This document shows, piece by piece, positions 3,724 to 24,032 of a stretch of 64,000 nt of DNA. Made by a program: the position numbers and the translations under genes. The DNA is from Puniceicoccaceae bacterium (GTDB taxonomy: Bacteria; Verrucomicrobiota; Verrucomicrobiia; Opitutales; Oceanipulchritudinaceae), in contig JBFOMH010000017.1 in the NCBI GenBank assembly GCA_040830765.1, positions 32,001 to 96,000 of the forward strand, in the 5' to 3' direction. The notes beneath the pieces are model-generated. The model saw only the letters and a program-made list of their open reading frames with translations. It was not told where the DNA came from and made no database searches. The first letter of the stretch is position 1, and each line of letters opens with the position of its first letter.

Positions 3724-3752
3724 CCGAAATAGACCAATTTTCACTACATTCA

Positions 3753-4813: not shown

Positions 4814-5453
4814 AATCGGCCTCCGCTTTGATGGGGAGATCAGTTTCGAGCAATGGCTTGAAATTGGTCGTAAGGTCGGCCGGGTTGCCCGAACCTCCCT
4901 CTTCCTTGTGGGCGACTGGCTCAACTATGGCCAGGATCGGTGGAATGGTGGTGAGCGGTTCGAGAAGATGGCCGAAGATCTGCGCGAGCGTTACGAGTCG
5001 GCCATGGCTGAGACTGGACTAGAGATGCGATCCTTGATGAATGCCGCCTACGTCGCACGGAATGTTCCGCAAGACCACCGCCGGCCACATTTGACCTTTG
5101 AACATCACACAGCGGTCGCAAGGGTTAAGGACAAGGAGGAGCGTCGTCAATGGCTCGCAAAGGCGGACAAACACGACATGTCCACACGGCGCCTACGCAA
5201 ATCTATCAATCTTGGTCGGGTTGCCACCGAAGCAGAAATGCAACCGGACCCGAAGACCACAGGCATCGACAACCACCTTTCTTGGATTGATGGCCTGATG
5301 CGCTGGTGGAAGCGTTTTGAACGCTCAGATTGGATGGCAGATGCATCCAGGGAAATGATCGAGGAAATGCTGTCTGACTTTCGGGATGTCCAGGCGATCA
5401 TTGCTTATCTGGAGGAGGAAGCGCAAAACCGTGAGCCGATAATCGAGGTTTAG
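4761..5453 (+). CDS. LmbU-like DNA-binding protein
   Basis: FEQWLEIG...LVGDWLNYG...AYVAR..RRPHLTFEHHTAVA. Confidence 0.65.
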   Translation: MNTENALIIDGAHVQVTEIGLRFDGEISFEQWLEIGRKVGRVARTSLFLVGDWLNYGQDRWNGGERFEKMAEDLRERYESAMAETGLEMRSLMNAAYVARNVPQDHRRPHLTFEHHTAVARVKDKEERRQWLAKADKHDMSTRRLRKSINLGRVATEAEMQPDPKTTGIDNHLSWIDGLMRWWKRFERSDWMADASREMIEEMLSDFRDVQAIIAYLEEEAQNREPIIEV

Positions 5454-5459
5454 TGCCAC

Positions 5460-5487
5460 TTTTGTCGTGTTTTGTCGTGTTTTGTCG
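5460..5487 (+). repeat. Tandem 10-bp repeat TTTTGTCGTG (about 2.8 copies)
   Basis: Directly visible; followed by the palindrome CATGGCGCCATG at 5491-5502. Confidence 0.85.
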
Positions 5488-5551
5488 ACTCATGGCGCCA
5501 TGAATCGAGGAGATTTCTAAGGAATCTATTAGAACCATTGCCTCAGGTAGG

Positions 5552-5608
5552 GTCCCTCAGAAGACCGGTCGATTTAAGAGACATCCGGATTTTTTCATTT
5601 CCCACAAA
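5552..5608 (+). repeat. 57-bp dispersed repeat, copy A
   Basis: GTCCCTCAGAAGACCGGTCGATTTAAGAGACATCCGGATTTTTTCATTTCCCACAAA; 54/57 identical to copy B. Confidence 0.92.
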
Positions 5609-5827
5609 ATTACATACCTGAAAAAGACCAGTTCCCTGATTAATTGAGAAATCCAGATGGCTGTGAGATACTGGAAAGTGGGAAATCATCATCACCCCTT
5701 ACATTCAGTCATTCCAAATCTCTTAGAGAATTTTGAATTACTTGCATTTATGAAGAGTGTACTTATTTCTCTTCCCTGAAACAGAACTTCGAAGTCCTAC
5801 TATAAAACAGTCGGATATACGTGGGCG

Positions 5828-6328
5828 ATGATTGGGCTAAAAAGAGGAACATTAAAGTTGCTTCCCTATGATAAGCATTGGGAGAAAGAATATTTGTCCG
5901 AAGCAGCACGATTGGAATCAAACTTGGAAAATAACATTCTGCGAATTGCTCATATCGGAAGTACATCTATTCCAGGAATACGTTCTAAGCCCGTGATTGA
6001 TATCGCAATGGAGGTTGCAGACCTATCGCAAACACGAAAATTATTAGAAAAACTTGGATATGAGTATCTGGGGGATCGAAGATCCGACGGTGACCATTTT
6101 TTCGCGAAAGGTCCTGACGAAAATAGAACCCATTACATGCATGTTTCAACTATTGAGAATTCCCGATTCGACAAGTATGTAAGATTTCGAGATTCGCTGC
6201 GAAACAACAAAGATTTAGCACAAAAGTATGACCAACTTAAATCCGACCTAATGAACAAATATAAACAAGATCGAGAAAGATATACGGCAGCGAAATCAAA
6301 TTTTATTAATGAGGTTATTAGATCATGA
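5828..6328 (+). CDS. GrpB family (UPF0157) nucleotidyltransferase-fold protein
   Basis: IAHIGSTSIPG..SKPVIDI and FRDSLR...Y..LK motifs. Confidence 0.88.
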   Translation: MIGLKRGTLKLLPYDKHWEKEYLSEAARLESNLENNILRIAHIGSTSIPGIRSKPVIDIAMEVADLSQTRKLLEKLGYEYLGDRRSDGDHFFAKGPDENRTHYMHVSTIENSRFDKYVRFRDSLRNNKDLAQKYDQLKSDLMNKYKQDRERYTAAKSNFINEVIRS

Positions 6329-6384
6329 TCCAACCAGTCGATGTAGGTGTCGTACCTCAGCTTTAACTTTGTCCATCAAACACT

Positions 6385-6864
6385 ATGTTACCCGAAGTAC
6401 CTGAAGAAAAGAACTTAGTTCTAGTACAGGAGAGCCAGAAAGAATTCTGGCTTTATCCTCGGGCAGCTGAGAATTGGATAAAAATGCAAAAAACCGCGAG
6501 AGAAGAAGGAATCGTTCTAAAGATTATCTCAGCTTATCGAAGCATTGAGCGTCAGGAAAAGATCGTGGAGGCTAAAAGAAAAAAGGGGTTATCGGAGGAA
6601 GAGATTTTTCGATTCAGCGCACCACCTGGCTTCAGTGAACACCATTCTGGACGAGCAATAGACATTACTACTGATGGAGTGACTCCTCTGGAAGAAGAGT
6701 TTGAAAAAACCAAAGCGTTTAAGTGGCTAACGCAAAACGCTAGCAGGTTCTCATTTAGGATGAGCTATCCCAGAAAAAATGAATACGGTTTGGGGTACGA
6801 ACCTTGGCATTGGGTATACTTTGAATTAACACAACCAGTTACCGAAAATGACGATCCCTATTGA
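6385..6864 (+). CDS. M15B (VanY-like) D-Ala-D-Ala carboxypeptidase
   Basis: SAYRS, SAPPGFSEHHSGRAID, YEPWHW. Confidence 0.88.
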   Translation: MLPEVPEEKNLVLVQESQKEFWLYPRAAENWIKMQKTAREEGIVLKIISAYRSIERQEKIVEAKRKKGLSEEEIFRFSAPPGFSEHHSGRAIDITTDGVTPLEEEFEKTKAFKWLTQNASRFSFRMSYPRKNEYGLGYEPWHWVYFELTQPVTENDDPY

Positions 6865-6899
6865 AGTCGACCGGCACTTTAGACTTAACGGTATCTAAA

Positions 6900-7523
6900 A
6901 TGAATCAGAGAGATCTATCCATTGAAATCACCAACGCACTGATCGCTTCAGCTGCGTTTGAAACAGTAGAATTAAGGGGAAGTCTTAACGGCGGAAAGAT
7001 CGATTCATTCTCCGACATAGATATCGAGGTTTCGAACAACCAGCGAGCCGCGACAGACAACGTCCATGTAGCCATAGAGGTCTTAAGGGAAAGGAAAAAG
7101 ATATTACTAATCGATTGGGCTACATCACTTCTTCCGGATCAAAGCATAGCGTCGATCTACTTGTCAGGATATTCGGTTTTCTGGAACGTGGACATATCGT
7201 GTAGAGCCAATCAACACGTCAAGGCTCCGGAAAATGCAATCATACAAGAGAAGAATGGTCATATATTGAAGCTCTGGATACTAAATGCTAAGTACGTTCT
7301 AAGATCCAATACTGAAAAATGCACCTTAGACGGACTTTTTAGGAGATTATTCCCTGAAGAAAATTTATCCGGCACCCAACAAGCGAAGCTAATTCGGATT
7401 TGGAGAAGTATAGATCGCGAAGCAATAGATTCAGAGCTGGTCGATCAATGCGAAGATCTGATCGAAGAACATGGCTGGAATGAATGCTTCGATAACCAGG
7501 CGAGCGAGGCTACTGCCTATTGA
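6900..7523 (+). CDS. Nucleotidyltransferase-domain protein
   Basis: LRGSL...DSFSDIDI motif; ATG 6900 chosen as start. Confidence 0.65.
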   Translation: MNQRDLSIEITNALIASAAFETVELRGSLNGGKIDSFSDIDIEVSNNQRAATDNVHVAIEVLRERKKILLIDWATSLLPDQSIASIYLSGYSVFWNVDISCRANQHVKAPENAIIQEKNGHILKLWILNAKYVLRSNTEKCTLDGLFRRLFPEENLSGTQQAKLIRIWRSIDREAIDSELVDQCEDLIEEHGWNECFDNQASEATAY

Positions 7524-7539
7524 CGGTATGCTACAAAAG

Positions 7540-8208
7540 ATGAACAGTGAAAAGATCTCCGAAGAGTATTGGAGTAAGATTCCGCACGAGAACCTTCCTC
7601 ATTTTGCAAGTAAGGAAAAGACCCAGGCCGAAGTAGCGTTTCTCAAAAAGTATTTACCTGTAAACTCGCGTGTTCTTGATCTAGGCTGCGGGTGGGGGCG
7701 AGTTGCTGCTGCCTTAGCGTACGAGGGTTATTCTGTAAGAGGGATTGATTTGTCACCACATCTTGTGGAACTCGCTCGCAAAAATGCTCCTCAAGAATTA
7801 AAGATTTCATACTCGACTGGCAGTCTGTTAGACATCCCTTGCCGCGACAGCTCCTTCGATTGTGTTGTTTGCCTGTGGGGAACATTTAATCACTTGCTTT
7901 CTCCTGATGAACAACTCACAGGATTGAACGAGATCTTTCGCGTGTTGTGCTTAGGTGGAGTCGCCATCCTTGAGATGAGCAACGGAGAATCGAAAGCAAA
8001 TAGAATTAATCGCCAGAAACTGGGGTTTGGTCATCAGAACCGTGTATTCGAATTACGTTACAAGCCTAAGAGTCCACCCAATACGATTTACATTCACGAT
8101 AGAAAGACCCTTGATGGGCTAGGGCATGCTTCTGATTTCTTAGACTATTCCGTAGGATTCAAAACTATCTTTGGAAAGAGAAGGCTTGTAGCTTTTCTCA
8201 AGAAATAG
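7540..8208 (+). CDS. Class I SAM-dependent methyltransferase
   Basis: VLDLGCGWGR, GIDLS, SFDCVVC. Confidence 0.85.
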   Translation: MNSEKISEEYWSKIPHENLPHFASKEKTQAEVAFLKKYLPVNSRVLDLGCGWGRVAAALAYEGYSVRGIDLSPHLVELARKNAPQELKISYSTGSLLDIPCRDSSFDCVVCLWGTFNHLLSPDEQLTGLNEIFRVLCLGGVAILEMSNGESKANRINRQKLGFGHQNRVFELRYKPKSPPNTIYIHDRKTLDGLGHASDFLDYSVGFKTIFGKRRLVAFLKK

Positions 8209-8264
8209 GTATAACCAGTCGCTGATGTCGCTCGTATCGGCCCTTCAGTTTTAACGTCAATAAA

Positions 8265-8918
8265 ATGAATAGCCCCTTAAGCAGTTCACTTGAAAACATG
8301 TATTGGATTGGTGGAACCAGTGGTTCCGCGAAATCCACCATCGCACGCCGAATAGCTGCAGAACATGACATGCTCTTATATTCCACAGATGAGGTTATGG
8401 GAAATCATGCGAATCGTTGTACTAGGGAGGAATGCCCATTACTGGAAGAATTCAAGCAGATGACGATGGATGAGCGGTGGGCAACTCGCACACCGGAAGC
8501 CATGTTCGAAACCTTCCAATGGTTTCATGGTGAAGGATTTAATCTCATAATCGAAGATTTGCTCGAATTACCCAGTGACCGGAAAGTAATCGTTGAGGGA
8601 TTTCGATTGCTTCCAAATCTCGTGAAGCCCCTGCTCAAAAAAACATGCCAGGCAGTGTGGCTTATTTCTACTCCGGAATTCCGATTCAAGGCGTTCAATG
8701 AACGGGGCACGCTACGCGATATCCCGGACAAGACATCAAATCCTGAGAAAGCGCTTCAGAACCACCTGGAGCGGGAGTCTCTGTTTATGCAGCATCTCAT
8801 TGAAGAGACGAGGACTGAAGGTGTCACGGCCTTAACGGTTGATGGGAGTTTTTCAGAAGAAGAGTTACTGAAAAGAGTTTCTACACATTTTGAAATAGGA
8901 CAACCAAACAAAGCTTAA
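8265..8918 (+). CDS. P-loop kinase-like protein
   Basis: WIGGTSGSAKST and IVEG motifs. Confidence 0.7.
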   Translation: MNSPLSSSLENMYWIGGTSGSAKSTIARRIAAEHDMLLYSTDEVMGNHANRCTREECPLLEEFKQMTMDERWATRTPEAMFETFQWFHGEGFNLIIEDLLELPSDRKVIVEGFRLLPNLVKPLLKKTCQAVWLISTPEFRFKAFNERGTLRDIPDKTSNPEKALQNHLERESLFMQHLIEETRTEGVTALTVDGSFSEEELLKRVSTHFEIGQPNKA

Positions 8919-8980
8919 ACAAAACCACGCCGGTCATCCGATAGTGTCATGTCCAACATTAACTTACTGAATAATAATCA

Positions 8981-9451
8981 ATGAAAAAGGAGTATCCGAC
9001 ATTAATTCACGAAAGAGTTGCTCTTGCCAGGGAGGGAAAGAACAAAACTGTAATCGCCAGAGTTCCTTCTGGCTGGGTTGTTCTGGGTGATGATCAAAGA
9101 TTAAAAGGTTATTCTCTGCTTCTCTCTGATCCCGTCGCCGACAATTTGAACGACTTGGGTGAAGAAGAAAGAAAGCAGTTTATGTGGGATATGTCCGCCG
9201 TTGGGGATTCTCTGATGACTGTGTTAAATCCATCGATTATCAATTATTCAATTTTAGGCAACTTGGACAGGGCGTTGCATGTTCACATTCATCCCCGATA
9301 TGATGAAGAGGAGGAGGATAAGAGAAGAAACACTCCACTGGTATATTGGTGGCTGAAAATGCCAGTTATACCTTTTGATTTCGAAAGAGACTCAAGTTTA
9401 ATGAAGCAGATCAAGGAAGAGCTTTCGAAGAGAACAACGATTATTTCATGA
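8981..9451 (+). CDS. HIT family hydrolase
   Basis: LGN...ALHVHIHPRY histidine triad. Confidence 0.85.
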   Translation: MKKEYPTLIHERVALAREGKNKTVIARVPSGWVVLGDDQRLKGYSLLLSDPVADNLNDLGEEERKQFMWDMSAVGDSLMTVLNPSIINYSILGNLDRALHVHIHPRYDEEEEDKRRNTPLVYWWLKMPVIPFDFERDSSLMKQIKEELSKRTTIIS

Positions 9452-9978
9452 AAATATTGGATAAAGTTGGCTTGTTTATAGCATCTGGCGGCAGTGGTGA
9501 TCCCAACTCGCCAAAAATAAAATGCTTGTCGAATGTTGCAGTGCAGAAAGGTATTGAATACATCCTCCCTGATTGGCGTTACTTGCCCTGTGACCCAGAG
9601 CCTAGATTGAAAGACTTAGAGGAGAGAACTGATCAGAAATTTGAAAGTCTAGTATTAGCTGGATCGAGCTTAGGCGGCTATGTTTGTTCCGTTTACGCAC
9701 ATAAGAGAAAAGTTGATGGACTATTCCTCCTAACCCCTATCCTCGGTAAAGACGGCTACAAGGATGACTCTCCAAAACCGATGTCCGAAGATACGGTTAT
9801 AATAGCAGCCTCAGAGGATGAATACACAAACGCCAAAGATGTAATCGCGTTTGCAAAAACAATTAATGCATCTCTGCACCTGCTATCGGGCAACCATTCT
9901 TTAGAGAATCATTCAGAATTCATAGCTCGTGAATTCGGTGCATTTATTGATAGAATTAAAAGCAGGAAAACCTTTTAA
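9448..9978 (+). CDS. Alpha/beta hydrolase
   Basis: GSSLGG nucleophile elbow and C-terminal GNH. Confidence 0.75.
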   Translation: MKILDKVGLFIASGGSGDPNSPKIKCLSNVAVQKGIEYILPDWRYLPCDPEPRLKDLEERTDQKFESLVLAGSSLGGYVCSVYAHKRKVDGLFLLTPILGKDGYKDDSPKPMSEDTVIIAASEDEYTNAKDVIAFAKTINASLHLLSGNHSLENHSEFIAREFGAFIDRIKSRKTF

Positions 9979-10156
9979 ATATAAATGAAGCCCCTCACTA
10001 AAGCTCTCTCAGGTTGATTTCTCGATTCAAGAACAAAGTGTAGTTATGCATTCGCGACAGAAAGACGGATTAGATCTTTAATTTTGTCGCCGATCTGCCA
10101 GAGTGATAACATGGGAACGGACCCCATAGTTAAGAACTCCAACAGAAAGGAAAATC

Positions 10157-10621
10157 ATGGATAAACTATACTGGATCGTATGCGAGGAGGGTGATCAGAC
10201 ACTGTTCGAAGGTCGCTTCCTCGGAAGGACGCGGGGAGCAGCACTCAAGCACATGAAAGAGCAATTGGGCCGGTCGAATTTGATCGGCCTTGTTTTTTCA
10301 ATCACTGAGATCCCTGTTCCTCTAATTAGGGATATCGTGAATGAGATTTTGGCGGAGCAGTTGCCCAAACAGATGAATGCAGTTCAAGTGGAGCCGAAGG
10401 AGGAACCTGAGGAGGAACAGGTTGAATTGGAGATCGAGCCGAATCCCTTCATGAATCCGCAACCCCGACCTGAATATGACTGGGAAGCGATCAAGGCATG
10501 CTACATGCAGGGGTGGGGTCCGAAGGGTGTAGCCAGGAAGATGGAGGTCCCGATAAATACTCTAAGAGGACGGATCCGCAGGGAATGCTGGGCGCACGAG
10601 CGCCGGGAGGTGGATGCATGA
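10157..10621 (+). CDS. Hypothetical phage protein with C-terminal HTH
   Basis: RBS AAAGGA; DWEAIKACYMQG..PKGVARKMEVPINTLRGRIRRECW. Confidence 0.7.
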   Translation: MDKLYWIVCEEGDQTLFEGRFLGRTRGAALKHMKEQLGRSNLIGLVFSITEIPVPLIRDIVNEILAEQLPKQMNAVQVEPKEEPEEEQVELEIEPNPFMNPQPRPEYDWEAIKACYMQGWGPKGVARKMEVPINTLRGRIRRECWAHERREVDA

Positions 10622-11070
10622 GAATCTATGAGGCATCCCTGAAATACAAACTCGTTAAATCAGGCCCGCTCACGGTGGTAGACTCCCCGGAGCGGGTTTT
10701 TAACTATATGGAGGGAGCGTTTGATCCTGATCCCACAGTGGAATGGTTCTTTGTGATACCCCTGAACCGCAAGAACCGGGCACTTGGCAGGGTTGCCATC
10801 ACGAAGGGAACGGCCACCGCATCACTTGTTCATCCGCGGGAAGTGTACCGGCCAGCGGTTCTTTGCAATGCATCATCCCTGATTGCTGTCCACAATCATC
10901 CCAGTGGCGATCCGTCACCCAGTCAGGCTGATATCCGGGCCACGAGACAACTGAGGGAAGCGGCGAAGGTGATGCAGATTGATCTTCTTGATCACGTGAT
11001 TATCGGGGAAAAGGATGCCGATCCCATGGGAAGTGGTTACTACTCATTTGCAGAAGCGGGATTACTGTGA
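10618..11070 (+). CDS. radC: RadC/JAB-domain protein
   Basis: VHPREV, HNHPSGDPSPSQAD, LLDHVII. Confidence 0.9.
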   Translation: MRIYEASLKYKLVKSGPLTVVDSPERVFNYMEGAFDPDPTVEWFFVIPLNRKNRALGRVAITKGTATASLVHPREVYRPAVLCNASSLIAVHNHPSGDPSPSQADIRATRQLREAAKVMQIDLLDHVIIGEKDADPMGSGYYSFAEAGLL

Positions 11071-11080
11071 GGAGAGCCAA

Positions 11081-11086
11081 TTGACA
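11081..11086 (+). promoter_or_regulatory. TTGACA-N14-ATG motif
   Basis: 14 nt before ATG 11101. Confidence 0.75.
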
Positions 11087-11100
11087 CTCACTCCTCGCAC

Positions 11101-11751
11101 ATGAGTGAAACTGAATCAGTGAAAGCCAAGGGCCTGGCCGATGGAATTGAAGTATGGTGTGGTTATGAAAAGCTGGTTCCGGTTGAGGATTTAAAGGCCA
11201 ATCCGCGTAATCCGAATACGCACCCGGTCCGCCAAATTGAACTGCTCGCCAAGAATATTCGATATTTTGGATGGCGCCACCCGATTTCTGTTTCCAGGCG
11301 AAGCGGATTGATTGTGGCCGGCCATGGCAGATTGGAAGCGGCCAAGCATTTGAACCTGCAGCTGGTGCCTGTGGATTATCAGAACTTCGCGAGCGAGAAT
11401 GATGAAATGGCGGTATTGATTGCCGACAACCGTTTGGCAGAACTTGCCAGTGTGGATCTCAATTCACTTGAAGGCGTGATCAACGATTTGAAGGTGGAGG
11501 GATTTGATACGCTGCTGACCGGTTTTGAAGACGCCGATTTGGACAGCCTGCTTTCGCCGGACAATTCAAATGAGGTGCTGGAGGAAGAAGATGGAGAGCT
11601 GGAGAAAGGCGACGTCACGATCACTTTGGGTTTGTATCGTTGGAAGGTCAGCCAGGAGGATTACCTCGCTTGGATTGATTCGGTGAAGCAGGAAGTCGGC
11701 TTCGATAAGGAATCGGTGATGAGGGAATTGAGAAAGCGACTGGGTGTATGA
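11101..11751 (+). CDS. ParB/Srx-domain protein
   Basis: NPRNPNTH..FGWRHPI..IVAGHGRLEAA..IADNRLAE. Confidence 0.88.
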   Translation: MSETESVKAKGLADGIEVWCGYEKLVPVEDLKANPRNPNTHPVRQIELLAKNIRYFGWRHPISVSRRSGLIVAGHGRLEAAKHLNLQLVPVDYQNFASENDEMAVLIADNRLAELASVDLNSLEGVINDLKVEGFDTLLTGFEDADLDSLLSPDNSNEVLEEEDGELEKGDVTITLGLYRWKVSQEDYLAWIDSVKQEVGFDKESVMRELRKRLGV

Positions 11752-13259
11752 TCAAGCTTGAGCCATTAGAAGCTGTCGCCCCGTCGACCTACAATCCGCG
11801 CAGCGCGGATCCTCAGCGTCTGGACCTGATTGAGCTTTCGTTAAGGAAACTTGGATTTCTGGCTCCGATCTTTGCCGACGAAAATGGGGAGATTCTTTCC
11901 GGTCACCAGCGACATCTCGTCGCCACCCGGATGGGAGCGAAGCATCTACCGGTATTCCGTACCCGCCCCATGGGGCTCCCTCAAAGAAAGGCGCTGAACA
12001 TCGTTTTCAACCGGGCAACCAATGACTTTGATTGGAACAGTACACCGGAGAAATCCACCCGGGAACTTGCATCACTGGATGTGCATCGCCTTGCGGAATC
12101 GATTTCCGATAAGGCTGTGGATTCCCCCGAATTTATCCGCTGTCTGACTCCGAATCAGGTGAGTGTGAAGGAGCTCTGCCGGACCAATTCCGGAAAGTGG
12201 AAGCAGTATGCGAAGAATCTGGCGAAGACCCTGCATCGAAACGGAATTCTCATGCCGATTATCTGCAAGAGAGATGGTACGGTGATCAATGGTATCGGGC
12301 GCCTTGAAATGCTCGCTGAAAAGAAGATCGAGAATGCTCCTGTCGTATATGTATCGGAAGAGGAGGCAGCTTTCGCAGAAGCGATGATGAACCTGCTTTC
12401 CATGGATTTCGATGTTGAGAGCCGCTATGATGATCTTCTGCGGTATAATTCATTCAGGCGTGCCCGCCGGGTGCGGGAGGAACTGGGCAATGGATTCATA
12501 TTCGCTGTCCACGGGGCAAAGCCTTGCTACACATTTGATATTTTCAATCCGAAGCAGAAGGCAAAGTGGCTGAGGGAACACGGTAATCGCATACTTGATT
12601 TCGGTGCCGGGCACTTGACGGAGACCAAGATTCTCCGCCGGGCGGGAATGGAAGTGTGTGCCTTTGAACCCTATCATATTACGCGATCGGATATTGATAA
12701 GGAGAAGAGTCTTGAGATATGCAGGGAGTTTATTGAAGCAGTTCGAGAAGGCAGAGAGTGGACTTCCATCTTTCTGGCCAGTGTCTTGAACTCGGTACCG
12801 TTCCAGACGGATCGGGAACACATTGCGGTGCTCCTGCAGGCGCTTTGCAGACCGGAAACAAAAGTCTATGCCTGTGCTTCGAGTGTGAGTGAAACCGGTT
12901 GGAGGCAGGTGAATGGGAAGGCATTTTTAAACAAGTCCAATTCAGCGAACATCGCATTCCGGTTGGATTATGAAACGGGAATCAGGATTGGTGATTTCCA
13001 GGACAAGCCGAAGGTGCAGAAGTACCATACGATAAAAGAATTCCATCAGCTATGGACTCCGTTTTTCCGCTCTGTTAGGGTGCGTGAAATGAGTAATAAC
13101 ATTACCGCTACATGCGCACATGCACTACCTGTCGATAAGGAACGGTTGAGGGCGGCAATTGAATTTGAATTTGATCTACCGTATCCGGATGGAACCCGGA
13201 TGGATATGGTTGAGGAAGCAATCGAAGCATTTGAAAAACGATTGGGTGTTAAACTGTGA
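11748..13259 (+). CDS. Tandem ParB domains fused to a class I SAM-methyltransferase-like domain
   Basis: YNPR..ILSGHQRH; second ParB VINGIGRL; RILDFGAGH..AFEPY..LASVLNSVP. Confidence 0.75.
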   Translation: MIKLEPLEAVAPSTYNPRSADPQRLDLIELSLRKLGFLAPIFADENGEILSGHQRHLVATRMGAKHLPVFRTRPMGLPQRKALNIVFNRATNDFDWNSTPEKSTRELASLDVHRLAESISDKAVDSPEFIRCLTPNQVSVKELCRTNSGKWKQYAKNLAKTLHRNGILMPIICKRDGTVINGIGRLEMLAEKKIENAPVVYVSEEEAAFAEAMMNLLSMDFDVESRYDDLLRYNSFRRARRVREELGNGFIFAVHGAKPCYTFDIFNPKQKAKWLREHGNRILDFGAGHLTETKILRRAGMEVCAFEPYHITRSDIDKEKSLEICREFIEAVREGREWTSIFLASVLNSVPFQTDREHIAVLLQALCRPETKVYACASSVSETGWRQVNGKAFLNKSNSANIAFRLDYETGIRIGDFQDKPKVQKYHTIKEFHQLWTPFFRSVRVREMSNNITATCAHALPVDKERLRAAIEFEFDLPYPDGTRMDMVEEAIEAFEKRLGVKL

Positions 13260-13672
13260 TATATCTATTGGATTTAAACTACACGCTGGTTGGGAATTCC
13301 CCAAGAAGGGGAGATCCACCTATCCGGCCATTCATCAGGCAGATCGAGCAAGAAGAGTACCGCCAGTGGTTGGTTGAACTATTGAGGCCTCACAAGGTGA
13401 TTTTAATTACCGCCCGACCGGACCGGTACAGGGAAGTGACCTTGGAGCGTATAAAGGAAAAGACGGGCTGGGAACCGGTGGATGCTTACTTCGCACAAAT
13501 ACAGGCACGACCTCCCCAGATTAAGGAGCACCTTTTGAAAACGCACATCTTCCCAAAGTATGGGAATAATGGATACTTTGCACTTGAGAGTAATCCGTAC
13601 ACTAGGGAGATGTATAAAGGATATGGCATAGAGGCGGTCCGGGTGACGGATCAGGAACTGATGAAATGTTGA
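13256..13672 (+). CDS. HAD-fold phosphatase-like protein (PNKP-phosphatase type)
   Basis: LLDLNYTL, LITARP, IKE and ALESNP variant HAD motifs. Confidence 0.7.
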   Translation: MIYLLDLNYTLVGNSPRRGDPPIRPFIRQIEQEEYRQWLVELLRPHKVILITARPDRYREVTLERIKEKTGWEPVDAYFAQIQARPPQIKEHLLKTHIFPKYGNNGYFALESNPYTREMYKGYGIEAVRVTDQELMKC

Positions 13673-13674
13673 CA
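13669..13674 (+). promoter_or_regulatory. TTGACA-N14-ATG motif
   Basis: 14 nt before ATG 13689. Confidence 0.75.
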
Positions 13675-13688
13675 CTGACTTAACCGGC

Positions 13689-14384
13689 ATGGACGCCGGA
13701 CAGGGGATCGAGACATCGCGCAGCAACTGGGTATTCGACGAAAAGGTCGCACCGAAGTTTGATGAGCATGTGAGAAAAAGCGTTCCCGACTATGATCGGA
13801 TCCAGGATCTGGCAGCAAGTCTTTCTGACTGGTTTGTGAAGGACGGAGGAACCGTTGTGGATCTGGGGGCATCAACCGGTGAAACACTTCATCGCATTCA
13901 AAAACGCAACCCGGCAAAGAAGATCGAGGTTATTGGTTACGACAATTCCAGTGCGATGATCCAGCAGGCGAAGGCAAAGGGAGTGGATGTGCATTTTTGC
14001 GATCTCTCCATGCTTACTGAAATGCGGGGTCACGATTACGGGGTATCGCTCTACACGCTCCAATTTCTGCGCCCGGGAGCCAAGCAGACGGTGCTTTCAG
14101 TATGCTATGATTCATTGAAGCGGGGCGGGGGATTTTTCGTTGTTGAGAAAGTCCATGGAAGCATTCCGGAATTCCAGGACATCACCCAGCAGCTGTACTG
14201 GGAAATGAAACTTGAAAATGGCCTTACACCAAAGGAAGTCCTGAACAAGGCGGCCGCATTGAGGGGCAATATGTTCCCCATGACAGTGGCGGAGAATGAG
14301 GCACTTTTCAGGCGCGTCGGCTTCGTTCGGTATGAGCTTGTATACCGCCATCTGCAATTTGCCGGTTGGCTCCTAATGAAGTAG
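13689..14384 (+). CDS. CmoA-like (carboxy-SAM synthase family) protein
   Basis: WVFDEKVAPKFDEHVRKSVPDY..DLGASTG..YDNSSAM..YTLQFL..VEK follows the CmoA layout over the full length. Confidence 0.8.
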   Translation: MDAGQGIETSRSNWVFDEKVAPKFDEHVRKSVPDYDRIQDLAASLSDWFVKDGGTVVDLGASTGETLHRIQKRNPAKKIEVIGYDNSSAMIQQAKAKGVDVHFCDLSMLTEMRGHDYGVSLYTLQFLRPGAKQTVLSVCYDSLKRGGGFFVVEKVHGSIPEFQDITQQLYWEMKLENGLTPKEVLNKAAALRGNMFPMTVAENEALFRRVGFVRYELVYRHLQFAGWLLMK

Positions 14385-14390
14385 CGGACA

Positions 14391-14396
14391 TTGACA
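14391..14396 (+). promoter_or_regulatory. TTGACA-N14-ATG motif
   Basis: 14 nt before ATG 14411. Confidence 0.75.
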
Positions 14397-14410
14397 CATG
14401 AATCCGGTGC

Positions 14411-15025
14411 ATGGACAACCTGACACCGGATACGGCAACCAAGATTCTCGACGCCGATTTTCAGAACATAGTGAAAAAAGTCGCGGGAGGGAAGACGCTT
14501 ACTGTTGCCGAGAGGGCACTGATTGAGGCACGGGCCTCCGGGAGTAATAACACAACGGCCTATGCCAAGACTGTTGTGGAATTATCTGAGGTACTGGGAG
14601 TAACCAGGCGGACGGTCGGCATGTGGCGCAAAATGCAGGGAGCACCAAAACCACTGTCCAACGGCGACCATGATGTTTCCGCATGGAGAGAGTTTGTCCG
14701 GTTAAACGGCCTGAAAGGCGGCAAGGAACTGGAGGGAGCCAACCATGAGGCCCTAAAGGCAAGGCGGCTACTTGTCGATATTGAGGAACGGGAACTTCGC
14801 CTGGCTATAAAGAGGGGAGACTACCTGCCCATGGAAGAGGTGAGACGGACTGTGATTGAGGGGATGGCACGGCTCTTCGCCATCTTACACAAACGACTCG
14901 AGGACGAATTGCCACCACTGTCCTGTGGAAAGGATGCAGTGGGTATCCGGGAGGAGAATGCCAAGGCTTTGGATGAGGCCCGGCAGGAGGCATATGAATT
15001 TTTCAGCGGATGGACCACAGCTTAA
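14411..15025 (+). CDS. Terminase small subunit (Nu1-like)
   Basis: HTH ELSEVLGVTRRTVGMWRK..GAP and coiled coil ELRLAIKRGDYLP; directly upstream of the large subunit. Confidence 0.8.
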   Translation: MDNLTPDTATKILDADFQNIVKKVAGGKTLTVAERALIEARASGSNNTTAYAKTVVELSEVLGVTRRTVGMWRKMQGAPKPLSNGDHDVSAWREFVRLNGLKGGKELEGANHEALKARRLLVDIEERELRLAIKRGDYLPMEEVRRTVIEGMARLFAILHKRLEDELPPLSCGKDAVGIREENAKALDEARQEAYEFFSGWTTA

Positions 15026-16818
15026 ATCCTGAAATTGCCGGCATGTTTGCCGAAGGGGTAAAACCTCCGGACAGGCGTCCTCCATGGCAGTGGGCTGAGG
15101 AGCATGTTACTTCCATCCCATATTCGCCTATGCCCGGACGGTTCCGCTCGGACAATTCACCGTGGGTTAGGGAGGTAATGGAGGCGATGGTGGATCCGCG
15201 GGTGAAAGTGGTGTCCATTATCGCATCTGTCCAATCCTCAAAGACGACCGCTCCGGAGCTGACCCTCTCTTACATCATATCCAACTTGCCCGGGCCCACC
15301 TTGTGGCTGGACCAGACTGACGAGGATGCGAAGGACCAGTCCGAGTCGCGCCTGCAAAAACTCTTCGAGGAATGTGAACCGGTTAAAAACTTGTATCCAA
15401 AAGACCGGCACAAAAGGAGAAACCATACTATCCACTTTGCCAATGGAATGACGCTCTGGATCCTTGGGGCACATAACAAAACCAATCTGCAACGCCGTTC
15501 CATTCGCTGGTTGATCGGTGATGAAACGTGGCGCTGGCCAACAGGACATATGGCTGAGGCGGAAGCCCGTGTAACTGCTTTCGGATGGCTGGGTAAATGC
15601 ATCTTCATGTCCCAGGGCGGTGAGGAAGATGATGATACGCATCGCAAATTTGAGACGACTGACATGCGCGAATGGACTTTCCAGTGTCCACATTGTGGAA
15701 AGCGTCAGCCCTTCGACTGGGATAATGTGGAGTGGTCCAAATCGGCAAGAACAGCGGAAGGGGATTGGGATTTCACTGAAGTGAGGAAAACCACTTCGCT
15801 TCGGTGTTGTGAGTGTAACCATTACTTTGCTGATTCGGATGCGACCCGCCGCCAGCTCAATGCCACGGGCAAGTTTGTGCGGACCAACCCGAAGGCATCT
15901 GAAGAGAATGTGGGATTTCATTGGAATGCCCTGTGCGCAATGTCGTGGGGGAAACTTGCGGAGATGTACCTTCGGGCCAAGGCAGCAGCAAGGCAGGGCG
16001 ACACATCCTTGTTGCAGCAGTTTTATCAGAAGCGACTCGCATTGCCCTGGAGGGAGTATGTTGAGGACTTCAAGGCGGATATTACCCGTAGCAACTATTG
16101 CATGGGGGATCCATGGCCGGATGAGGGGTATCTGACGGCAAAAGGCACGGTTGTGGATTCACCCACCGATGGTGCCACGGTTGTCCCGCTTCGATTCCTT
16201 TCAGTGGATGTGCAGATGGATCACTTCTGGTTGGTGGTCCGTGCCTGGAGTGCCAGCGGATCCTCAAGGCTAATGTGGTGCGAGCGTGCCCTCACATGGG
16301 AGGACGTTGAGCGGGTACAGGAACGCTTTGGTGTCCACGGCAGCTTGGTATTTGTGGATGCAGGATACAACAGCTATGAGGTATACCGCCACTGTGCCCG
16401 AAAGGGCTGGACTGCCCTAATGGGGGATAACCGTCCAACTTTCACCCACAAGGTAGGAAAACAAAGGGTTCAACGCTTCTACTCTCCGGTGCGGAAGGTC
16501 TATGTAGCCAATGGACAGGTTTGCCGGATGCACTATTGGAGCAATCTGAACATGAAGGATTCGCTCGCCAGGCTGCGGAGGAATCTGGAAGGCGGACCTA
16601 CATGGGAGATCCCCGAAGACATCCCCGAAGAGTACCTGCTTCATATGGACTCAGAGCACCGGATTAAGAGGGGCGGTAAATGGTTCTGGGATCAGATCGG
16701 CAAACGCCCGAACCACATGTTTGATGCGGAGTGCGAGCAGGTTGTCGGAGCCCATATGCTTAAGATTATTGGGCGCGAAAGTGTGCCTCAATCAGGAGAA
16801 TCCGATCCCGAAGGATAA
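15010..16818 (+). CDS. Terminase large subunit, lambda GpA family
   Basis: SVQSSKT Walker A, LIGDE Walker B, CPHCG, GFHWNAL, VDVQ, NHMFDAE. Confidence 0.93.
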   Translation: MDHSLNPEIAGMFAEGVKPPDRRPPWQWAEEHVTSIPYSPMPGRFRSDNSPWVREVMEAMVDPRVKVVSIIASVQSSKTTAPELTLSYIISNLPGPTLWLDQTDEDAKDQSESRLQKLFEECEPVKNLYPKDRHKRRNHTIHFANGMTLWILGAHNKTNLQRRSIRWLIGDETWRWPTGHMAEAEARVTAFGWLGKCIFMSQGGEEDDDTHRKFETTDMREWTFQCPHCGKRQPFDWDNVEWSKSARTAEGDWDFTEVRKTTSLRCCECNHYFADSDATRRQLNATGKFVRTNPKASEENVGFHWNALCAMSWGKLAEMYLRAKAAARQGDTSLLQQFYQKRLALPWREYVEDFKADITRSNYCMGDPWPDEGYLTAKGTVVDSPTDGATVVPLRFLSVDVQMDHFWLVVRAWSASGSSRLMWCERALTWEDVERVQERFGVHGSLVFVDAGYNSYEVYRHCARKGWTALMGDNRPTFTHKVGKQRVQRFYSPVRKVYVANGQVCRMHYWSNLNMKDSLARLRRNLEGGPTWEIPEDIPEEYLLHMDSEHRIKRGGKWFWDQIGKRPNHMFDAECEQVVGAHMLKIIGRESVPQSGESDPEG

Positions 16819-17051
16819 ATCGTGGGATTCCCTGTTTGCATCAATAATCCTGAAACAAACGGTTCATTATGGGATTTGGTTACCTCCCTTCTTGGCATAG
16901 ATTGAAGGTTATCATGTAGGTATGGGGAATTATCCAGAATGTAGGCATCTTCTGGAAGTATTGCTTGGATTGCTGCGGCTCCAAGTACCGTATATGTAAT
17001 ATACTTTTTCATAGTACTGGGAGTTACACTTATTCAGTGATTTAGGGAATA

Positions 17052-17561
17052 GTGAGACCTGAATTTTTTCTTTCTATTAATCGCGTCTCTTTATACTCTG
17101 TATTCATGGGATCCGACTTACAAGTACAGGCAGGAGCAATTATTGGTGGAACCATTGTTGATCCAACATGGATAGATTACACTTTTTGTGAGAATGAATC
17201 ACAATTTTCCGAGGTTCTTGGGTTCGTTATTAAGATCACAAATATATCCAATTCAAAACTGATCATTGATAACATATATTTTGTATTTAGTACTCATTCT
17301 CAAGAAGACGAACGGTTACCCGTTTATAGCAACAGATCTTTTTCTAGGCCAAACAAACTTCCTTCAACACAACATCCATGTATTACCTCGACCTATGAGT
17401 GCGGAATAAAGGATATCCCGCCCATAGCAGGTAATGCCATAGGGATATTAATCGCATACAAGAGTTGGCTGAATCCCTTTAAGGTTTTTCAATTCCATTT
17501 ACACCGTGACAATGACTTTCGGTTATTTACTGGAGCCTTGAAGGAAAGGTATTCGAGCTAA
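17052..17561 (+). CDS. Hypothetical protein in an AT-rich insert (moron)
   Basis: 169-aa ORF in a compositionally distinct gap between terminase and head-joining gene; start uncertain (ATG 17106 is an alternative). Confidence 0.45.
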   Translation: MRPEFFLSINRVSLYSVFMGSDLQVQAGAIIGGTIVDPTWIDYTFCENESQFSEVLGFVIKITNISNSKLIIDNIYFVFSTHSQEDERLPVYSNRSFSRPNKLPSTQHPCITSTYECGIKDIPPIAGNAIGILIAYKSWLNPFKVFQFHLHRDNDFRLFTGALKERYSS

Positions 17562-17576
17562 TCAACTAGCCAACGA

Positions 17577-17582
17577 TTGACA
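17577..17582 (+). promoter_or_regulatory. TTGACA-N14-ATG motif
   Basis: 14 nt before ATG 17597. Confidence 0.75.
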
Positions 17583-17596
17583 ATAAGTCGCCTTCG

Positions 17597-17851
17597 ATGG
17601 CGACAATTGATTATTCCATAGGTTTTACCCAGACGGAGGTAGAGGAGATCCTCACCGCTCAAAAGGCTGAGTTGAAAAAGACATTGGCCGCTTACGCCAA
17701 TGATGGATCCAGTGTGACCAAACGCCGTATTGATGAAATTCATGAGATCATCTCTGCCTGCCAGAAGGCCCTACAGAAGCTCGCTCCCGATACTTATGGT
17801 AAGGGGTTGAAGGTATCCCGGACGGGATTTGTCGACCACATGCAGTTGTAG
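17597..17851 (+). CDS. Head-completion protein (gpW-position)
   Basis: 84-aa ORF between terminase and portal; GSSVTKRRIDEI resembles the gpW hairpin. Confidence 0.6.
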   Translation: MATIDYSIGFTQTEVEEILTAQKAELKKTLAAYANDGSSVTKRRIDEIHEIISACQKALQKLAPDTYGKGLKVSRTGFVDHMQL

Positions 17852-17857
17852 GCATGA

Positions 17858-17863
17858 TTGACA
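17858..17863 (+). promoter_or_regulatory. TTGACA-N13-GTG motif
   Basis: 13 nt before in-frame GTG 17877. Confidence 0.65.
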
Positions 17864-17876
17864 TGTGCCTGGAGCC

Positions 17877-19322
17877 GTGAAGATCCTCCAAAGCATTGGC
17901 AAAGTTCTAATGGGTTCATCCTATGAGGCGGCAAATCCATCAATTCGCCGTTCAAGGGTGCCTGGTGCCGCGCCGTCCGATGCAAGAAGGGAGTTGACGG
18001 CCCATACCCGCCGCGAACTGGTACGCAAAAGCAGATACCTGAACAAGAACAGTGGTTTCTCTCGCGAGGTCGTGGGGGACATGGCGATTTATTCGACCGG
18101 AGATGGAATCCGTCCCCAGGCACAAACAGCGGATCCAGCATGGAACAGGCAGGCGGAGGAATTTTTCAAACGGTGGTCCGCACGTCCCGAAGTGACCAAC
18201 CGGTTCTCATTCGAGGAATGCCAGAATCTGGTTTGCCGGGGAATCGATGTGGACGGGGAATATTTTGTATTGAAAATTCGCGACAAGTTCGGACGTGCCC
18301 GGATACAGTTGGTGGAATCCCACAGGATAGGATCGGCTTCTGAGGATAGAAAGGTGATCGATGGTATTGAATTTGATGCGATAGGAGCGCCGTTTGCTTA
18401 TCATCTTATCCAGGACAATGGAAAGCCTCGGAAGGTGTTCGCCAATGCGGTGATGCATGTCTTTGAACCGGAGTTTGCAAGTGGTGCGCGAAGTCACCCG
18501 ACTTTGCAGCATTCCATCAACCACATTCTCGATGAAATGGAGATGCTTGCGTTGGAAAAGCATGCGGTGAAGGATAATCAGGATGTTTCACGGATCATTA
18601 AGCGCGAAAGCGGAACTTTGGAGGATGATGGAGATTTTAGAGTATCGCCGGATACAGGTGAAGCAGCTGACCAGAGTGATCCGTCCGCTATCCAGAGAAT
18701 CACAGGAGGCAAGGTCCTGGCATTGAAGCCGGGAGAGTCCATGGACAGTTTTCAGTCGAACAGGCCAAGCTCCATGTTCACCGGATTTCTGGAGCACTTG
18801 AAGCGGGACAGCAGCGCCGGGGTACTCCCCTATGAATTTGTACTGGATTCATCCAGTGTGGGTGGTGCCGGAGTACGCTTGATTGTAGCGAAGGCAGACC
18901 GTCGCTTTTCCTACCGGCAACTAATCCTCATCCAGCGATTCCTCAAACCAACATGGGGCTGGGTGATTGGTGATGCCATTGATAGGGGAGAGTTGGAACC
19001 GATGAAGGGTTGGAACAAGGTGACCTGGGTTACTCCACGCCGCATCACGGTCGATGCAGGCCGGGAGGCAGAATCCCACCGGAAAGATGTGGAGATGGGC
19101 CTACTCACATTTTCGGATCATTTCTCAGAGATTGGAATGGATTTTCGCGAAGAAATTGAGCGTAGGGCACAGGATTCAAGAGACATATTGGATATGGCAA
19201 ACCGATATGGTGTACCCGTGGATATGCTCTATCGCCCAAGTGGGACGAAAAGTACTCCTGCTCAGGAACCTTTGACATCGGACGGGGGCAGTGCCCCACA
19301 AAGATCCGAAGAAGAAAGCTGA
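17877..19322 (+). CDS. Portal protein, lambda family
   Basis: SYEAA..ELVRKSRYL..GDGIRPQ..DGEYF..DGIEFD..G.P.AY..GVLPYE. Start placed at GTG 17877 using the upstream motif. Confidence 0.92.
   Translation: MKILQSIGKVLMGSSYEAANPSIRRSRVPGAAPSDARRELTAHTRRELVRKSRYLNKNSGFSREVVGDMAIYSTGDGIRPQAQTADPAWNRQAEEFFKRWSARPEVTNRFSFEECQNLVCRGIDVDGEYFVLKIRDKFGRARIQLVESHRIGSASEDRKVIDGIEFDAIGAPFAYHLIQDNGKPRKVFANAVMHVFEPEFASGARSHPTLQHSINHILDEMEMLALEKHAVKDNQDVSRIIKRESGTLEDDGDFRVSPDTGEAADQSDPSAIQRITGGKVLALKPGESMDSFQSNRPSSMFTGFLEHLKRDSSAGVLPYEFVLDSSSVGGAGVRLIVAKADRRFSYRQLILIQRFLKPTWGWVIGDAIDRGELEPMKGWNKVTWVTPRRITVDAGREAESHRKDVEMGLLTFSDHFSEIGMDFREEIERRAQDSRDILDMANRYGVPVDMLYRPSGTKSTPAQEPLTSDGGSAPQRSEEES
19272..19277 (+). 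promoter_or_regulatory. TTGACA-N13-GTG motif
   Basis: 13 nt before GTG 19291, inside the portal 3' end. Confidence 0.65.
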
Positions 19323-19944
19323 ATACAACCGCCGCTACTACCAAGAAAACCGGGAGCGGCTTAAGGAACATGCACGTAAATATTACCACGATAATATTGA
19401 TGCTCAAAAAATTGTTAGAAAACAATGGCGAGAGGCCAACAAAGACAAAGTTAAAGCTTCAAACAAAGCATACCAGCGAGAGCAAAAGCAAAAAATACGA
19501 GAATATCAACAGGGTCGGAAGAATGATCCTGAGGTCATTGCAAAACGCCGAAATCAAAAGCGTCGATACTATCAACAGCGAATTCAAAGAGATCCACAAT
19601 GGCGGGTAGTTCGTGCTCTTCGTCTTCGACTTTGGACTGCGCTTAAGCAGCGTAAAATAGACAAGTCAGAATCCAGCCTCGAACTTGTTGGATGCGAAAT
19701 CAGTGCCCTCGTCAGACACATTGAAAACCTGTTTCAGCCAGGAATGTCTTGGGAAAATTACGGATCAAAAGGCTGGCATATTGACCACATTACTCCCTGC
19801 GCTGCCTTCGATCTTAGTGATCCAGCACAACAGAAGAAATGTTTCCATTACACGAACCTGCAACCTCTATGGGCGAGAGACAATATAGTTAAAGGGCATA
19901 GTCTTCCCACATCGCTTTCTGAAGCAGTCGTCCCACCCGGTTGA
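19291..19944 (+). CDS. HNH endonuclease with a basic helical N-terminus
   Basis: GMSWENYG..WHIDHITPC..CFHYTNLQPLWARDNIVK. Confidence 0.85.
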   Translation: MPHKDPKKKAEYNRRYYQENRERLKEHARKYYHDNIDAQKIVRKQWREANKDKVKASNKAYQREQKQKIREYQQGRKNDPEVIAKRRNQKRRYYQQRIQRDPQWRVVRALRLRLWTALKQRKIDKSESSLELVGCEISALVRHIENLFQPGMSWENYGSKGWHIDHITPCAAFDLSDPAQQKKCFHYTNLQPLWARDNIVKGHSLPTSLSEAVVPPG

Positions 19945-19946
19945 CA
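19941..19946 (+). promoter_or_regulatory. TTGACA motif upstream of the tRNA
   Basis: 19 nt before the tRNA 5' end at 19966. Confidence 0.6.
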
Positions 19947-19965
19947 GAGTCCAGTTTCAACAAAC

Positions 19966-20035
19966 ACGAGGGAGAAAAGGATTCGGTCGGGCTCATAACC
20001 CGGCAACGCAGGTTCGATTCCTGCCCCTCGTCCCA
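19966..20035 (+). tRNA. Atypical tRNA-Met(CAT), initiator-like anticodon arm, shortened D arm
   Basis: Acceptor ACGAGGG/CCCTCGT, anticodon arm TCGGG-CTCATAA-CCCGG, T arm GCAGG-TTCGATT-CCTGC, encoded CCA; 70 nt. Confidence 0.8.
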
Positions 20036-22892: not shown

Positions 22893-23042
22893 AATTTTCC
22901 CCTTTCTCTTAATTAAGTACGTTCTTTCCTGAGCTTAACCTTGCTTGGATTTTCTATAATGTAACGAAATGGAAGTGGCCTATATTCAATCGCCCAATAT
23001 TAGAAATGAGGTAATCTGGGTGCGTCTTCGAATAGTCACGGG

Positions 23043-24026: not shown

Positions 24027-24032
24027 TTGACA
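24027..24032 (+). promoter_or_regulatory. TTGACA-N13-ATG motif
   Basis: 13 nt before ATG 24046, right after the moron insert. Confidence 0.75.

Follow-up and report, generated by a model that had tools for sequence, protein, structure and literature searches.

The locus considered here raises the question of what a phage would do with a homologue of CmoA, the enzyme that makes carboxy-S-adenosylmethionine (carboxy-SAM), when neither the phage nor its host has the tRNA enzyme CmoB. The window, i.e., the whole stretch of DNA that was analysed, comprises 64,000 nucleotides of contig JBFOMH010000017.1 from a Puniceicoccaceae bacterium (positions 32,001-96,000 of the forward strand; G000:C17:32001-96000). 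Four open reading frames (ORFs) on the same strand, termed g1 to g4, lie in a prophage just upstream of the genes for the small and large terminase subunits (TerS and TerL). A sequence-only reading had described them as a ParB protein, a double ParB fused to a methyltransferase, a variant HAD protein and a CmoA-like protein, and had proposed that together they modify DNA with carboxy-SAM. The ORFs were found exactly where it placed them, and the motifs it quoted (LDFGAGH, FEPY and SVLNSVP in g2, KAAALRG in g4) are all present in the translations. The general idea is not new, since a paper of December 2025 already describes phage DNA carboxymethylation by CmoA together with the C5-type methyltransferase CmoX (Yang et al., Nat Commun 2025; PMC12783734). 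In our opinion, the module is nevertheless best read as a late-expressed DNA modification system of a different make, in which g4 would make carboxy-SAM and g2 would carboxymethylate the phage DNA; we put the probability of this reading at roughly 0.45. The parts of the module are as follows.

11101..11751, + strand: g1, small ParB/Srx-domain protein with a conserved C-terminal domain, 216 amino acids (phrog_620, phrog_498)
11748..13259, + strand: g2, whole ORF, 503 amino acids (phrog_5475)
11748..12038, + strand: first ParB domain of g2, residues 1-97, with YNPR, SGHQR and FNRATND motifs
12153..12395, + strand: second ParB-like domain of g2, residues 136-216, with the NGIGRL motif
12426..13130, + strand: class I Rossmann methyltransferase-fold domain of g2, residues 227-461, with DFGAGH, FEP and SVLNSVPF
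13131..13259, + strand: conserved C-terminal tail of g2, with the EFEF-D/N-LPYP motif and an RLG ending (invariant alignment columns; predicted local distance difference test, pLDDT, 85-96)
13256..13672, + strand: g3, capless HAD fold like that of the T4 Pnkp 3'-phosphatase, with DLNYT and ESN replacing the catalytic acid motifs, 138 amino acids
13689..14384, + strand: g4, CmoA-like, likely a carboxy-SAM synthase of the 'Arg at position 203' type, 231 amino acids

The genes are tightly packed, with 4-base overlaps at g1/g2 and g2/g3 and gaps of 16 bases between g3 and g4 and of 26 bases between g4 and TerS.

The sequence of g4 makes it a likely carboxy-SAM synthase. Its best model match is TIGR00740, the CmoA model, at 120.3 bits, and it aligns over its full length with the E. 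coli CmoA structure (4gek; E 3e-22), to which it is 28% identical; profile and structure comparison thus bear out the earlier view of g4 as CmoA-like. CmoA models are also the top match for all 13 CmoA-like proteins tested. In the account of the E. coli enzyme by Byrne 2013 (PMC3663124), Arg199 forms a salt bridge with the cofactor carboxylate, while Tyr39, Asp62, Asn132, Ser66, Asp89 and Asn90 contact the rest of the cofactor. The contacts to S-adenosylmethionine (SAM) are largely kept in g4, which has Tyr39, Asp62, Gly64, Ser66 and Asp89, and Asn90 too; Leu occupies the Asn132 position and Ala the Arg199 position, with an Arg four residues on, at 203 (KAAALRG). The sequence-only reading had aligned g4 with E. 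coli CmoA and was right about each residue it named, both the retained Tyr39, G-x-S and D-N and the two replacements with the displaced Arg. Its warning that the product may therefore not be carboxy-SAM holds as regards the changes themselves and loses most of its weight, since SpCmoA of Synechococcus phage S-B43, aligned here via the identical protein of phage S-B05, also has Leu at 132 and Arg at 203, with Glu at 199, and SpCmoA is reported by Yang et al. to make carboxy-SAM faster than the E. coli enzyme does (PMC12783734). The pattern is thus compatible with activity, and Arg203, one helical turn on, presumably replaces Arg199 in the carboxylate contact. A residue census of 116 aligned proteins (114 non-redundant CmoA-like proteins linked to g2, plus the E. 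coli enzyme, EcCmoA, and SpCmoA as references) found Arg199 in 86, Arg at 203 only in 22, including g4 and SpCmoA, and neither in 8.

The history of the CmoA slot points in the same direction. In a tree of 27 representatives, a 95/95 split divides the CmoAs linked to g2, and on its two sides they are interspersed with EcCmoA, SpCmoA and the CmoX-linked CmoA of phage PaBG; g4 falls with SpCmoA and the CmoA of Gordonia phage Evaa, subject to a long-branch warning, and the Arg199-type CmoAs share a 97/98 clade with the PaBG protein. Close relatives of the present phage (g2 about 70% and TerL about 69% identical) have in the same slot a CmoA that is 28-32% identical to g4 and of the canonical Arg199 type. 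The slot has been refilled from another CmoA lineage, an outcome to be expected if the two lineages produce the same cofactor. No alternative comes from the host: in its genome (96.9% complete, 40 contigs) the best match to PF08003, the CmoB family, scores 22.8 bits against a cut-off of 23.8 and lies outside g2, PF00145 (C5 methyltransferases) has zero matches, and there is no CmoA-like gene besides g4. The earlier statement that CmoB is missing from the window therefore extends to the whole genome.

The protein that would use the cofactor, g2, belongs to phrog_5475 (E 4e-104), a group of undescribed function. Profile searches identified ParB_N stretches at residues 6-69 and 155-211 and a weak Methyltransf_23 match at 276-351. 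Judged by the ParB_N fold and its GxxR motif, a ParB/Srx N-terminal domain is present once in g1 and twice in g2, and the C-terminal domain of g2 has the class I SAM-dependent methyltransferase fold, showing a Gly-rich motif I and, following strand 2, an acidic residue. DFGAGH, FEP and SVLNSVPF are invariant or nearly so even where members of the family are just 23-33% identical to the first sequence of the alignment. When the catalytic domain alone was compared with 1.84 billion representatives, 358 proteins were found at E<=1e-3, nearly all of them about 500 residues long and with the same architecture as g2, which therefore constitutes a family of its own. Other searches added little: g2 against solved structures gave marginal ParB/Noc matches (E 0.04) and otherwise chance matches, and the ESM Atlas returned Methyltransf_23-type clusters and nothing else for the catalytic domain.

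By its motifs, g2 belongs to no known DNA methyltransferase class. C5 enzymes are recognised by PF00145 with a catalytic Pro-Cys motif, and CmoX in addition by the carboxylate-binding Arg350; g2 has no PF00145 match, no SPPC/PC motif and no invariant Cys in its catalytic domain, in agreement with the earlier remark that no C5-type PC motif is obvious. Nor does g2 match PF01555 or PF02384, and its loop after strand 4 reads SVLNSVPF, not the (D/N/S)PP(Y/F/W) of N6-adenine and N4-cytosine enzymes. PF08003, the family of CmoB with its carboxylate site of Lys91, Tyr200 and Arg315, is likewise without a match in g2. With no C5-, N6- or N4-type signature, the chemistry of g2 would therefore differ from that of these classes. 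Residues 473-480 contain an invariant EFEF-(D/N)-LPYP motif, which is placed after strand 7, not strand 4, in the model. It resembles N-L/I-P-Y, the form that the catalytic motif of amino-methyltransferases takes in KsgA/Erm enzymes. Candidates for a carboxylate-binding site in g2 are this D/N-L-P-Y-P tail, an Arg-rich helix ahead of strand 1, and the invariant E, Q-K and H in the insertion between strands 5 and 6.

The small protein g1 is a ParB protein by its matches to phrog_620 (E 5e-36) and phrog_498 (E 1.2e-39), the latter over residues 12-169, which correspond to the N-terminal module of phage ParB-DNA-methyltransferase fusions. These fusions (ParB_N with N6_N4_Mtase) are instructive relatives of the present system. 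Their ParB module is homologous to g1 and to the first domain of g2, is joined, as in g2, to a SAM-dependent catalytic domain, and lies near the terminase; their catalytic domain, however, is a recognised amino-methyltransferase (PF01555), whereas that of g2, which is of Methyltransf_23 type, follows two ParB domains and is linked to a CmoA gene. Among the relatives of g2, P0268 (706 amino acids) joins a g1-like ParB module and a complete g2 in one natural fusion; only one representative shows this, so that a gene-calling artefact is possible. Another relative, P0270 (891 amino acids), carries a LAGLIDADG_3 domain inserted at residues 340-393, which suggests an intein or a homing endonuclease. 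An apparent insertion in some loci, where g2 matches extend over 2.1 kb, was rejected, as it is the adjacent g1 ParB domain joined to the match.

A link between g2 and carboxy-SAM also comes from the neighbourhoods of CmoA itself. A scan that took the CmoX-linked CmoA of PaBG as its first sequence matched 498 viral stretches, and the best 80 were examined within 5 kb of CmoA. CmoX is present in 40 of these loci, g2 in 19 and neither in 21, part of which are truncated; no locus has both. A ParB protein matching the g1 profile accompanies 27/40 of the CmoX loci, 17/19 of the g2 loci and 2/21 of those with neither. The two kinds of system also differ in their additional genes: g3 is found in 0/40, 19/19 and 3/21 of the same three sets, and the ligase CmoY in 15/40, 0/19 and 10/21. 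Since CmoX and g2 never occur together in the 80 loci, g2 fills the transferase slot, and such exclusivity is what one expects of two alternative users of the same cofactor and not of an independent sink for SAM. The gene order of PaBG is ParB-CmoX-CmoA-x-CmoY. Comparison of g1 with the PaBG ParB protein gave generic ParB similarity only (E 1e-3), which therefore falls short of showing the ParB partners of CmoX and g2 to be orthologous. Ten CmoA loci, mostly on contigs of about 260 kb (L231, L237, L242, L244, L245, L248, L250, L252, L265 and L272), contain a CmoY-like ligase, but within 5 kb they have neither CmoX nor g2; they may be served by some third type of transferase or by a distant one.

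The module resembles the S-B43 CmoA-CmoX(-CmoY) system in several respects: a phage CmoA stands beside a SAM-fold transferase, often with a ParB protein, in the absence of a host CmoB, and g4 and SpCmoA share the Leu-132 and Arg-203 pattern. The systems differ in the transferase itself, CmoX being a C5 methyltransferase and g2 a distinct ParB-ParB-Rossmann family, and in that S-B43-type systems have the CmoY ligase where g2 loci have a Pnkp-like HAD protein instead. The E. coli CmoA/CmoB pathway of tRNA cmo5U formation, as represented by PDB entries 4GEK and 4IWN (PMC3663124, PMC4482062), shares with the module the full-length alignment and the SAM contacts of g4; it differs in the residues at 132 and 199, in having CmoB, which is absent from phage and host here, and in the partner, which in the present case carries ParB domains.

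Conservation of the neighbourhood around g2, proposed earlier as a check on the module, supports the coupling. With g2 as query, relatives were detected on 347 and on 407 viral contigs, as well as in 281 species genomes, and the best 80 of each were examined. In the first 83 loci, tblastn detected g1, g3 and g4 each in 82, the misses being at contig ends. Profile searches over 190 loci, a set that includes the window and three cultured phages, found g1 in 182, g4 in 171, g3 in 170 and a CmoX-like gene in 1. Removal of 53 redundant loci and of 44 lacking 2.5 kb downstream and 0.8 kb upstream left 93 non-redundant loci, in which g1 is present in 93, g4 in 90, g3 in 86 and a CmoX-like gene in 1, while CmoY and CmoB are found in 0/93. 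Three loci lack g4, namely one truncated prophage (L097) and the distant g2 lineages L145 and L188. Clustering of g2 at 50% identity gives 8 clusters, of which 6 contain g4 and 3 contain g3. In most loci the module lies directly upstream of TerS/TerL, and the g1-g2-CmoA-like trio is found beside the terminase in cultured phages with unrelated hosts, namely Gordonia phage Evaa, Aeromonas phage HJ05 and the Pseudomonas Samunavirus (PA_L9/SM1), the Evaa locus having a 'phosphatase' gene in addition. Because the four genes recur together in related and distant loci, the arrangement is not due to chance, and the coupling of g2 and g4 across deep lineages is supported.

The earlier picture of a four-gene module accordingly survives for g1, g2 and g4 and has to be corrected for g3, which is an accessory outside the conserved core and is missing from 7/93 loci, including those of Samunavirus and HJ05. 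The protein belongs to phrog_32036 (E 1.9e-33) and has a capless HAD fold, closest to Pnkp, i.e., of the T4 Pnkp 3'-phosphatase type; at the level of sequence no link to Pnkp was found, the best E value of the g3 profile against solved chains being 0.26. The canonical catalytic motif of HAD enzymes is DxDxT, with both Asp residues present, together with an acidic motif IV. In place of DxDxT g3 has DLNYT, from which the second catalytic Asp is missing. D-L-N-Y-T is conserved in 70/71 and E-S-N in 71/71 of the non-redundant relatives of g3, the protein of Gordonia phage Evaa having His at the Asn position. That the Asp nucleophile is invariant while the general acid is missing points to altered chemistry or tight binding and not to ordinary turnover. 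Thus, g3 shares with the T4 Pnkp 3'-phosphatase and bacterial Pnkp1 (PDB 5uj0, 1ltq, 4xrp) the capless HAD fold, and differs from them in having no kinase domain, no second Asp and E-S-N as motif IV. The long g3 proteins of high-GC (guanine-cytosine) loci are an artefact of upstream ORF extension, for which reason the counts were taken from aligned segments; the ORF of L192, with DUF5824 and DUF3721 upstream, was uninformative on function. In six loci of the Opitutales/Puniceicoccaceae type (L118, L126, L128, L131, L135 and L158), a g3-like HAD gene with the motif DLNQT or DLNYT lies upstream of g1, and five of them (not L128) have another g3-like gene after g2, giving two copies.

The immediate surroundings of the module include the following features.

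10498..11070, + strand: RadC-like JAB protein, upstream neighbour (PF04002, 130.5 bits)
11081..11086, + strand: TTGACA box, 14 bases before the g1 start codon
13669..13674, + strand: TTGACA box, 14 bases before the g4 start codon
14391..14396, + strand: TTGACA box, 14 bases before the TerS start codon
14411..15025, + strand: terminase small subunit TerS (phrog_57, E 7e-8)
15010..16818, + strand: terminase large subunit TerL, gpA type (PF05876, 131.6 bits; PF20454, 71.7 bits)

The TTGACA boxes bear on the time of expression. TTGACA stands 12-16 bases before an ATG or GTG at window positions 11081, 13669, 14391, 17577, 17858, 19272, 20850, 21467, 24027, 25532 and 28970, and most of these codons are the starts of late-region ORFs. 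The window has 14 matches in all, a number not above that of shuffled sequences (mean 10.1), and 11 of them lie on the + strand in the interval from 11 to 29 kb; what is striking is their position at start codons. Given this spacing before g1, g4, TerS and further late ORFs, the module looks like part of a late, packaging-time gene set. Prediction of sigma-70 promoters and terminators over 9800-15200 yielded no more sites than in shuffles. The RNA evidence consists of contigs of three metatranscriptome runs from one study. In run X2 a single contig spans 11144-15845, from g1 into TerL, and over 1-20000 the summed word depth varies between 13.8 and 873 in the RNA library, against a flat 6.5-10.1 in a DNA run; 16009-16675 is almost without cover in X2, a gap on which no weight is placed. 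These data are a weak hint that the late region is transcribed, as contigs cannot demonstrate a transcript. In the same run one contig resumes at 2512 after reaching 15845, the two parts sharing a 9-base overlap; this junction may be an assembly chimera.

By domain annotation, the prophage extends from window position 1 to about 40,000, with host genes from about 40.5 kb onward, and contains replication genes, morons, a gpA-type terminase, a lambda-type portal, an S49 protease, a P22-type coat protein and tail genes. The RadC-like JAB gene occurs near relatives of g2 in 7/83 loci only and is not conserved with the module. A low-GC block (0.43) at 5828-9978, probably a moron cluster, encodes GrpB, VanY, a class I methyltransferase (7471-8208) and AAA_33 kinase-like, HIT-like and alpha/beta hydrolase proteins; a second low-GC block, at 22476-25132 among the structural genes, includes a minus-strand DUF4386 protein. 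A tRNA-Met (CAT) gene at 19966-20035 lies between the portal-region genes and the protease gene. Outside the window, directly upstream of the early genes of the prophage (L198, G000:C17:12001-32000, positions 7537-17704), a tyrosine integrase gene precedes those of a Type I restriction-modification system (HsdR, HsdS, HsdM), among which DUF3037/HipA_2 and Hypoth_Ymh genes are interspersed.

The mechanism that we favour can be put as follows. SAM and prephenate would be converted by g4 into carboxy-SAM; g2, a class I methyltransferase fold set on two ParB/Srx domains, would move the carboxymethyl group onto phage DNA, presumably helped by the small ParB protein g1; the acceptor would be other than a cytosine C5 reached via a cysteine mechanism; and g3 may be a lineage-specific accessory whose target is the nucleic acid or the mark. 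We infer the product of g4, the cofactor of g2, DNA as the acceptor and the role of g3. DNA is favoured as the acceptor because of the ParB modules, the equivalence of the g2 and CmoX slots and the polynucleotide-phosphatase fold of g3, and a role in tRNA modification is unlikely because the prophage has a single tRNA gene and the host lacks CmoA, CmoB and C5 methyltransferases. A bolder version of the same mechanism, which we regard as doubtful, would make g2 a new class of DNA-modifying enzyme, placing a carboxymethyl (or processed) group at packaging time on a site at which carboxymethylation has never been seen, for example an exocyclic amine, a ring nitrogen or the backbone, with g3 as a second-step enzyme peculiar to this system in the place of CmoY; it would extend over hundreds of phages of Verrucomicrobiota, Actinomycetota, Pseudomonas and Aeromonas.

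A number of observations weigh against the favoured mechanism. The chemistry of the module is deduced from sequence. Structurally, the catalytic domain of g2, a putative user of carboxy-SAM, is nearest to small-molecule and tRNA methyltransferases, and DNA methyltransferases are absent from its top 50 structural matches. On the side of g4, the TIGR00740 score is under the curated cut-off of 193.3 bits, the position aligned with Arg199 is Ala, the putative substitution by Arg203 leans on one validated homologue, and the 8 of 116 CmoA-like proteins with Arg at neither position include those of HJ05 and PA_L9. Two distant g2 lineages (L145 and L188) have no neighbouring CmoA. Most loci come from a few verrucomicrobial phage lineages, so that the raw counts overstate independence and the cluster counts are fairer. 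Finally, the RNA evidence, confined to contigs of one study, is weak.

These points can be accommodated in other ways. It is possible, if unlikely, that the acceptor is not a DNA base and that g2 carboxymethylates or methylates RNA, a nucleotide bound by its ParB/Srx domains, a packaging protein or the ends or backbone of DNA during packaging, with g3 processing the 3' end of a polynucleotide. Such a role is at odds with a prophage that encodes only tRNA-Met(CAT) in a host without CmoB, with the mutual exclusion of g2 and CmoX, a proven DNA enzyme, as partners of CmoA and ParB, and with the fusion of g1-like ParB modules to true DNA methyltransferases; L188, where g2 is followed by a ParB-N6_N4 DNA methyltransferase, is a further case. 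That g3 is dispensable in several lineages also speaks against it. The low model score of g4, its Ala and Leu at the positions of Arg199 and Asn132, the proteins lacking both arginines and the long branches of the tree would suit an enzyme that makes another SAM derivative or uses a co-substrate other than prephenate, so that g2 would transfer a different group. We consider this improbable. The validated SpCmoA has the same substitutions and scores just 115.6 bits, also under the cut-off, which therefore does not separate active from inactive phage enzymes, and close relatives of the phage hold in the same slot Arg199-type CmoAs that group with the PaBG protein at 97/98.

Two further explanations detach g2 from the cofactor. 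The protein could be an ordinary SAM-dependent phage DNA methyltransferase and g4 an independent gene that, for instance, drains SAM to blunt SAM-dependent host defences. Depletion of SAM by phage CmoA is raised, and left as an open question, by Yang et al. (PMC12783734); a Type I restriction-modification system is encoded just upstream of the prophage, and the two g2 lineages with no adjacent CmoA would fit as well. Yet g4 accompanies g2 in 90/93 loci and 6/8 deep clusters, the association has persisted through a change of CmoA lineage, and g2 and CmoX never share one CmoA in the 80 CmoA-centred loci, all of which makes an independent g4 rather improbable. Alternatively, the ParB proteins might serve packaging or partition, e.g., terminase site recognition, the methyltransferase fold being regulatory or inactive. 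The position of the module directly upstream of TerS/TerL in most loci and the three ParB domains in two proteins would agree with this; the SAM-binding motifs of g2 (D-F-G-x-G, the acid of FEP and, in the loop after strand 4, N and P) are, however, invariant in a diverse alignment, and an obligate CmoA partner has no place in pure packaging. We regard this last explanation as very improbable.

The proposal of carboxy-SAM-dependent DNA modification is thus strengthened by the CmoA character that g4 shares with SpCmoA and by the position of g2 in the slot of CmoX, while its claim to novelty as a general idea falls to Yang et al. In full-text literature on carboxy-SAM or CmoA in connection with phage DNA or ParB-methyltransferases, that paper (PMC12783734) was the only relevant one, and literature on Samunavirus and PaMx31 contained nothing about DNA modification. 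According to the Discussion of Yang et al., CmoA came with no candidate N6- or N4-carboxymethyltransferases, and the paper reports no other class of transferase in association with phage CmoA (PMC12783734). The present analysis adds the comparison of g4 and SpCmoA by residues and score, the count of g2 and CmoX as mutually exclusive, the swap in the CmoA slot, the negative results for the host genome, and the Pnkp-like identity of the HAD gene with its restriction to g2 systems.

A single type of enzyme, the C5 methyltransferase homologue CmoX, is known to modify DNA by means of carboxy-SAM, and about a quarter of the sampled CmoA-centred viral loci (19/80) use the g2 family instead. Because cultured phages (Evaa, Samunavirus and HJ05) carry the module, the proposal is testable. 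If g2 does carboxymethylate DNA, it would provide a new natural modification of a base or of the backbone, a new enzyme scaffold for site-directed DNA functionalisation, and a concrete role for the ParB domains that recur in the DNA-modification genes of phages.

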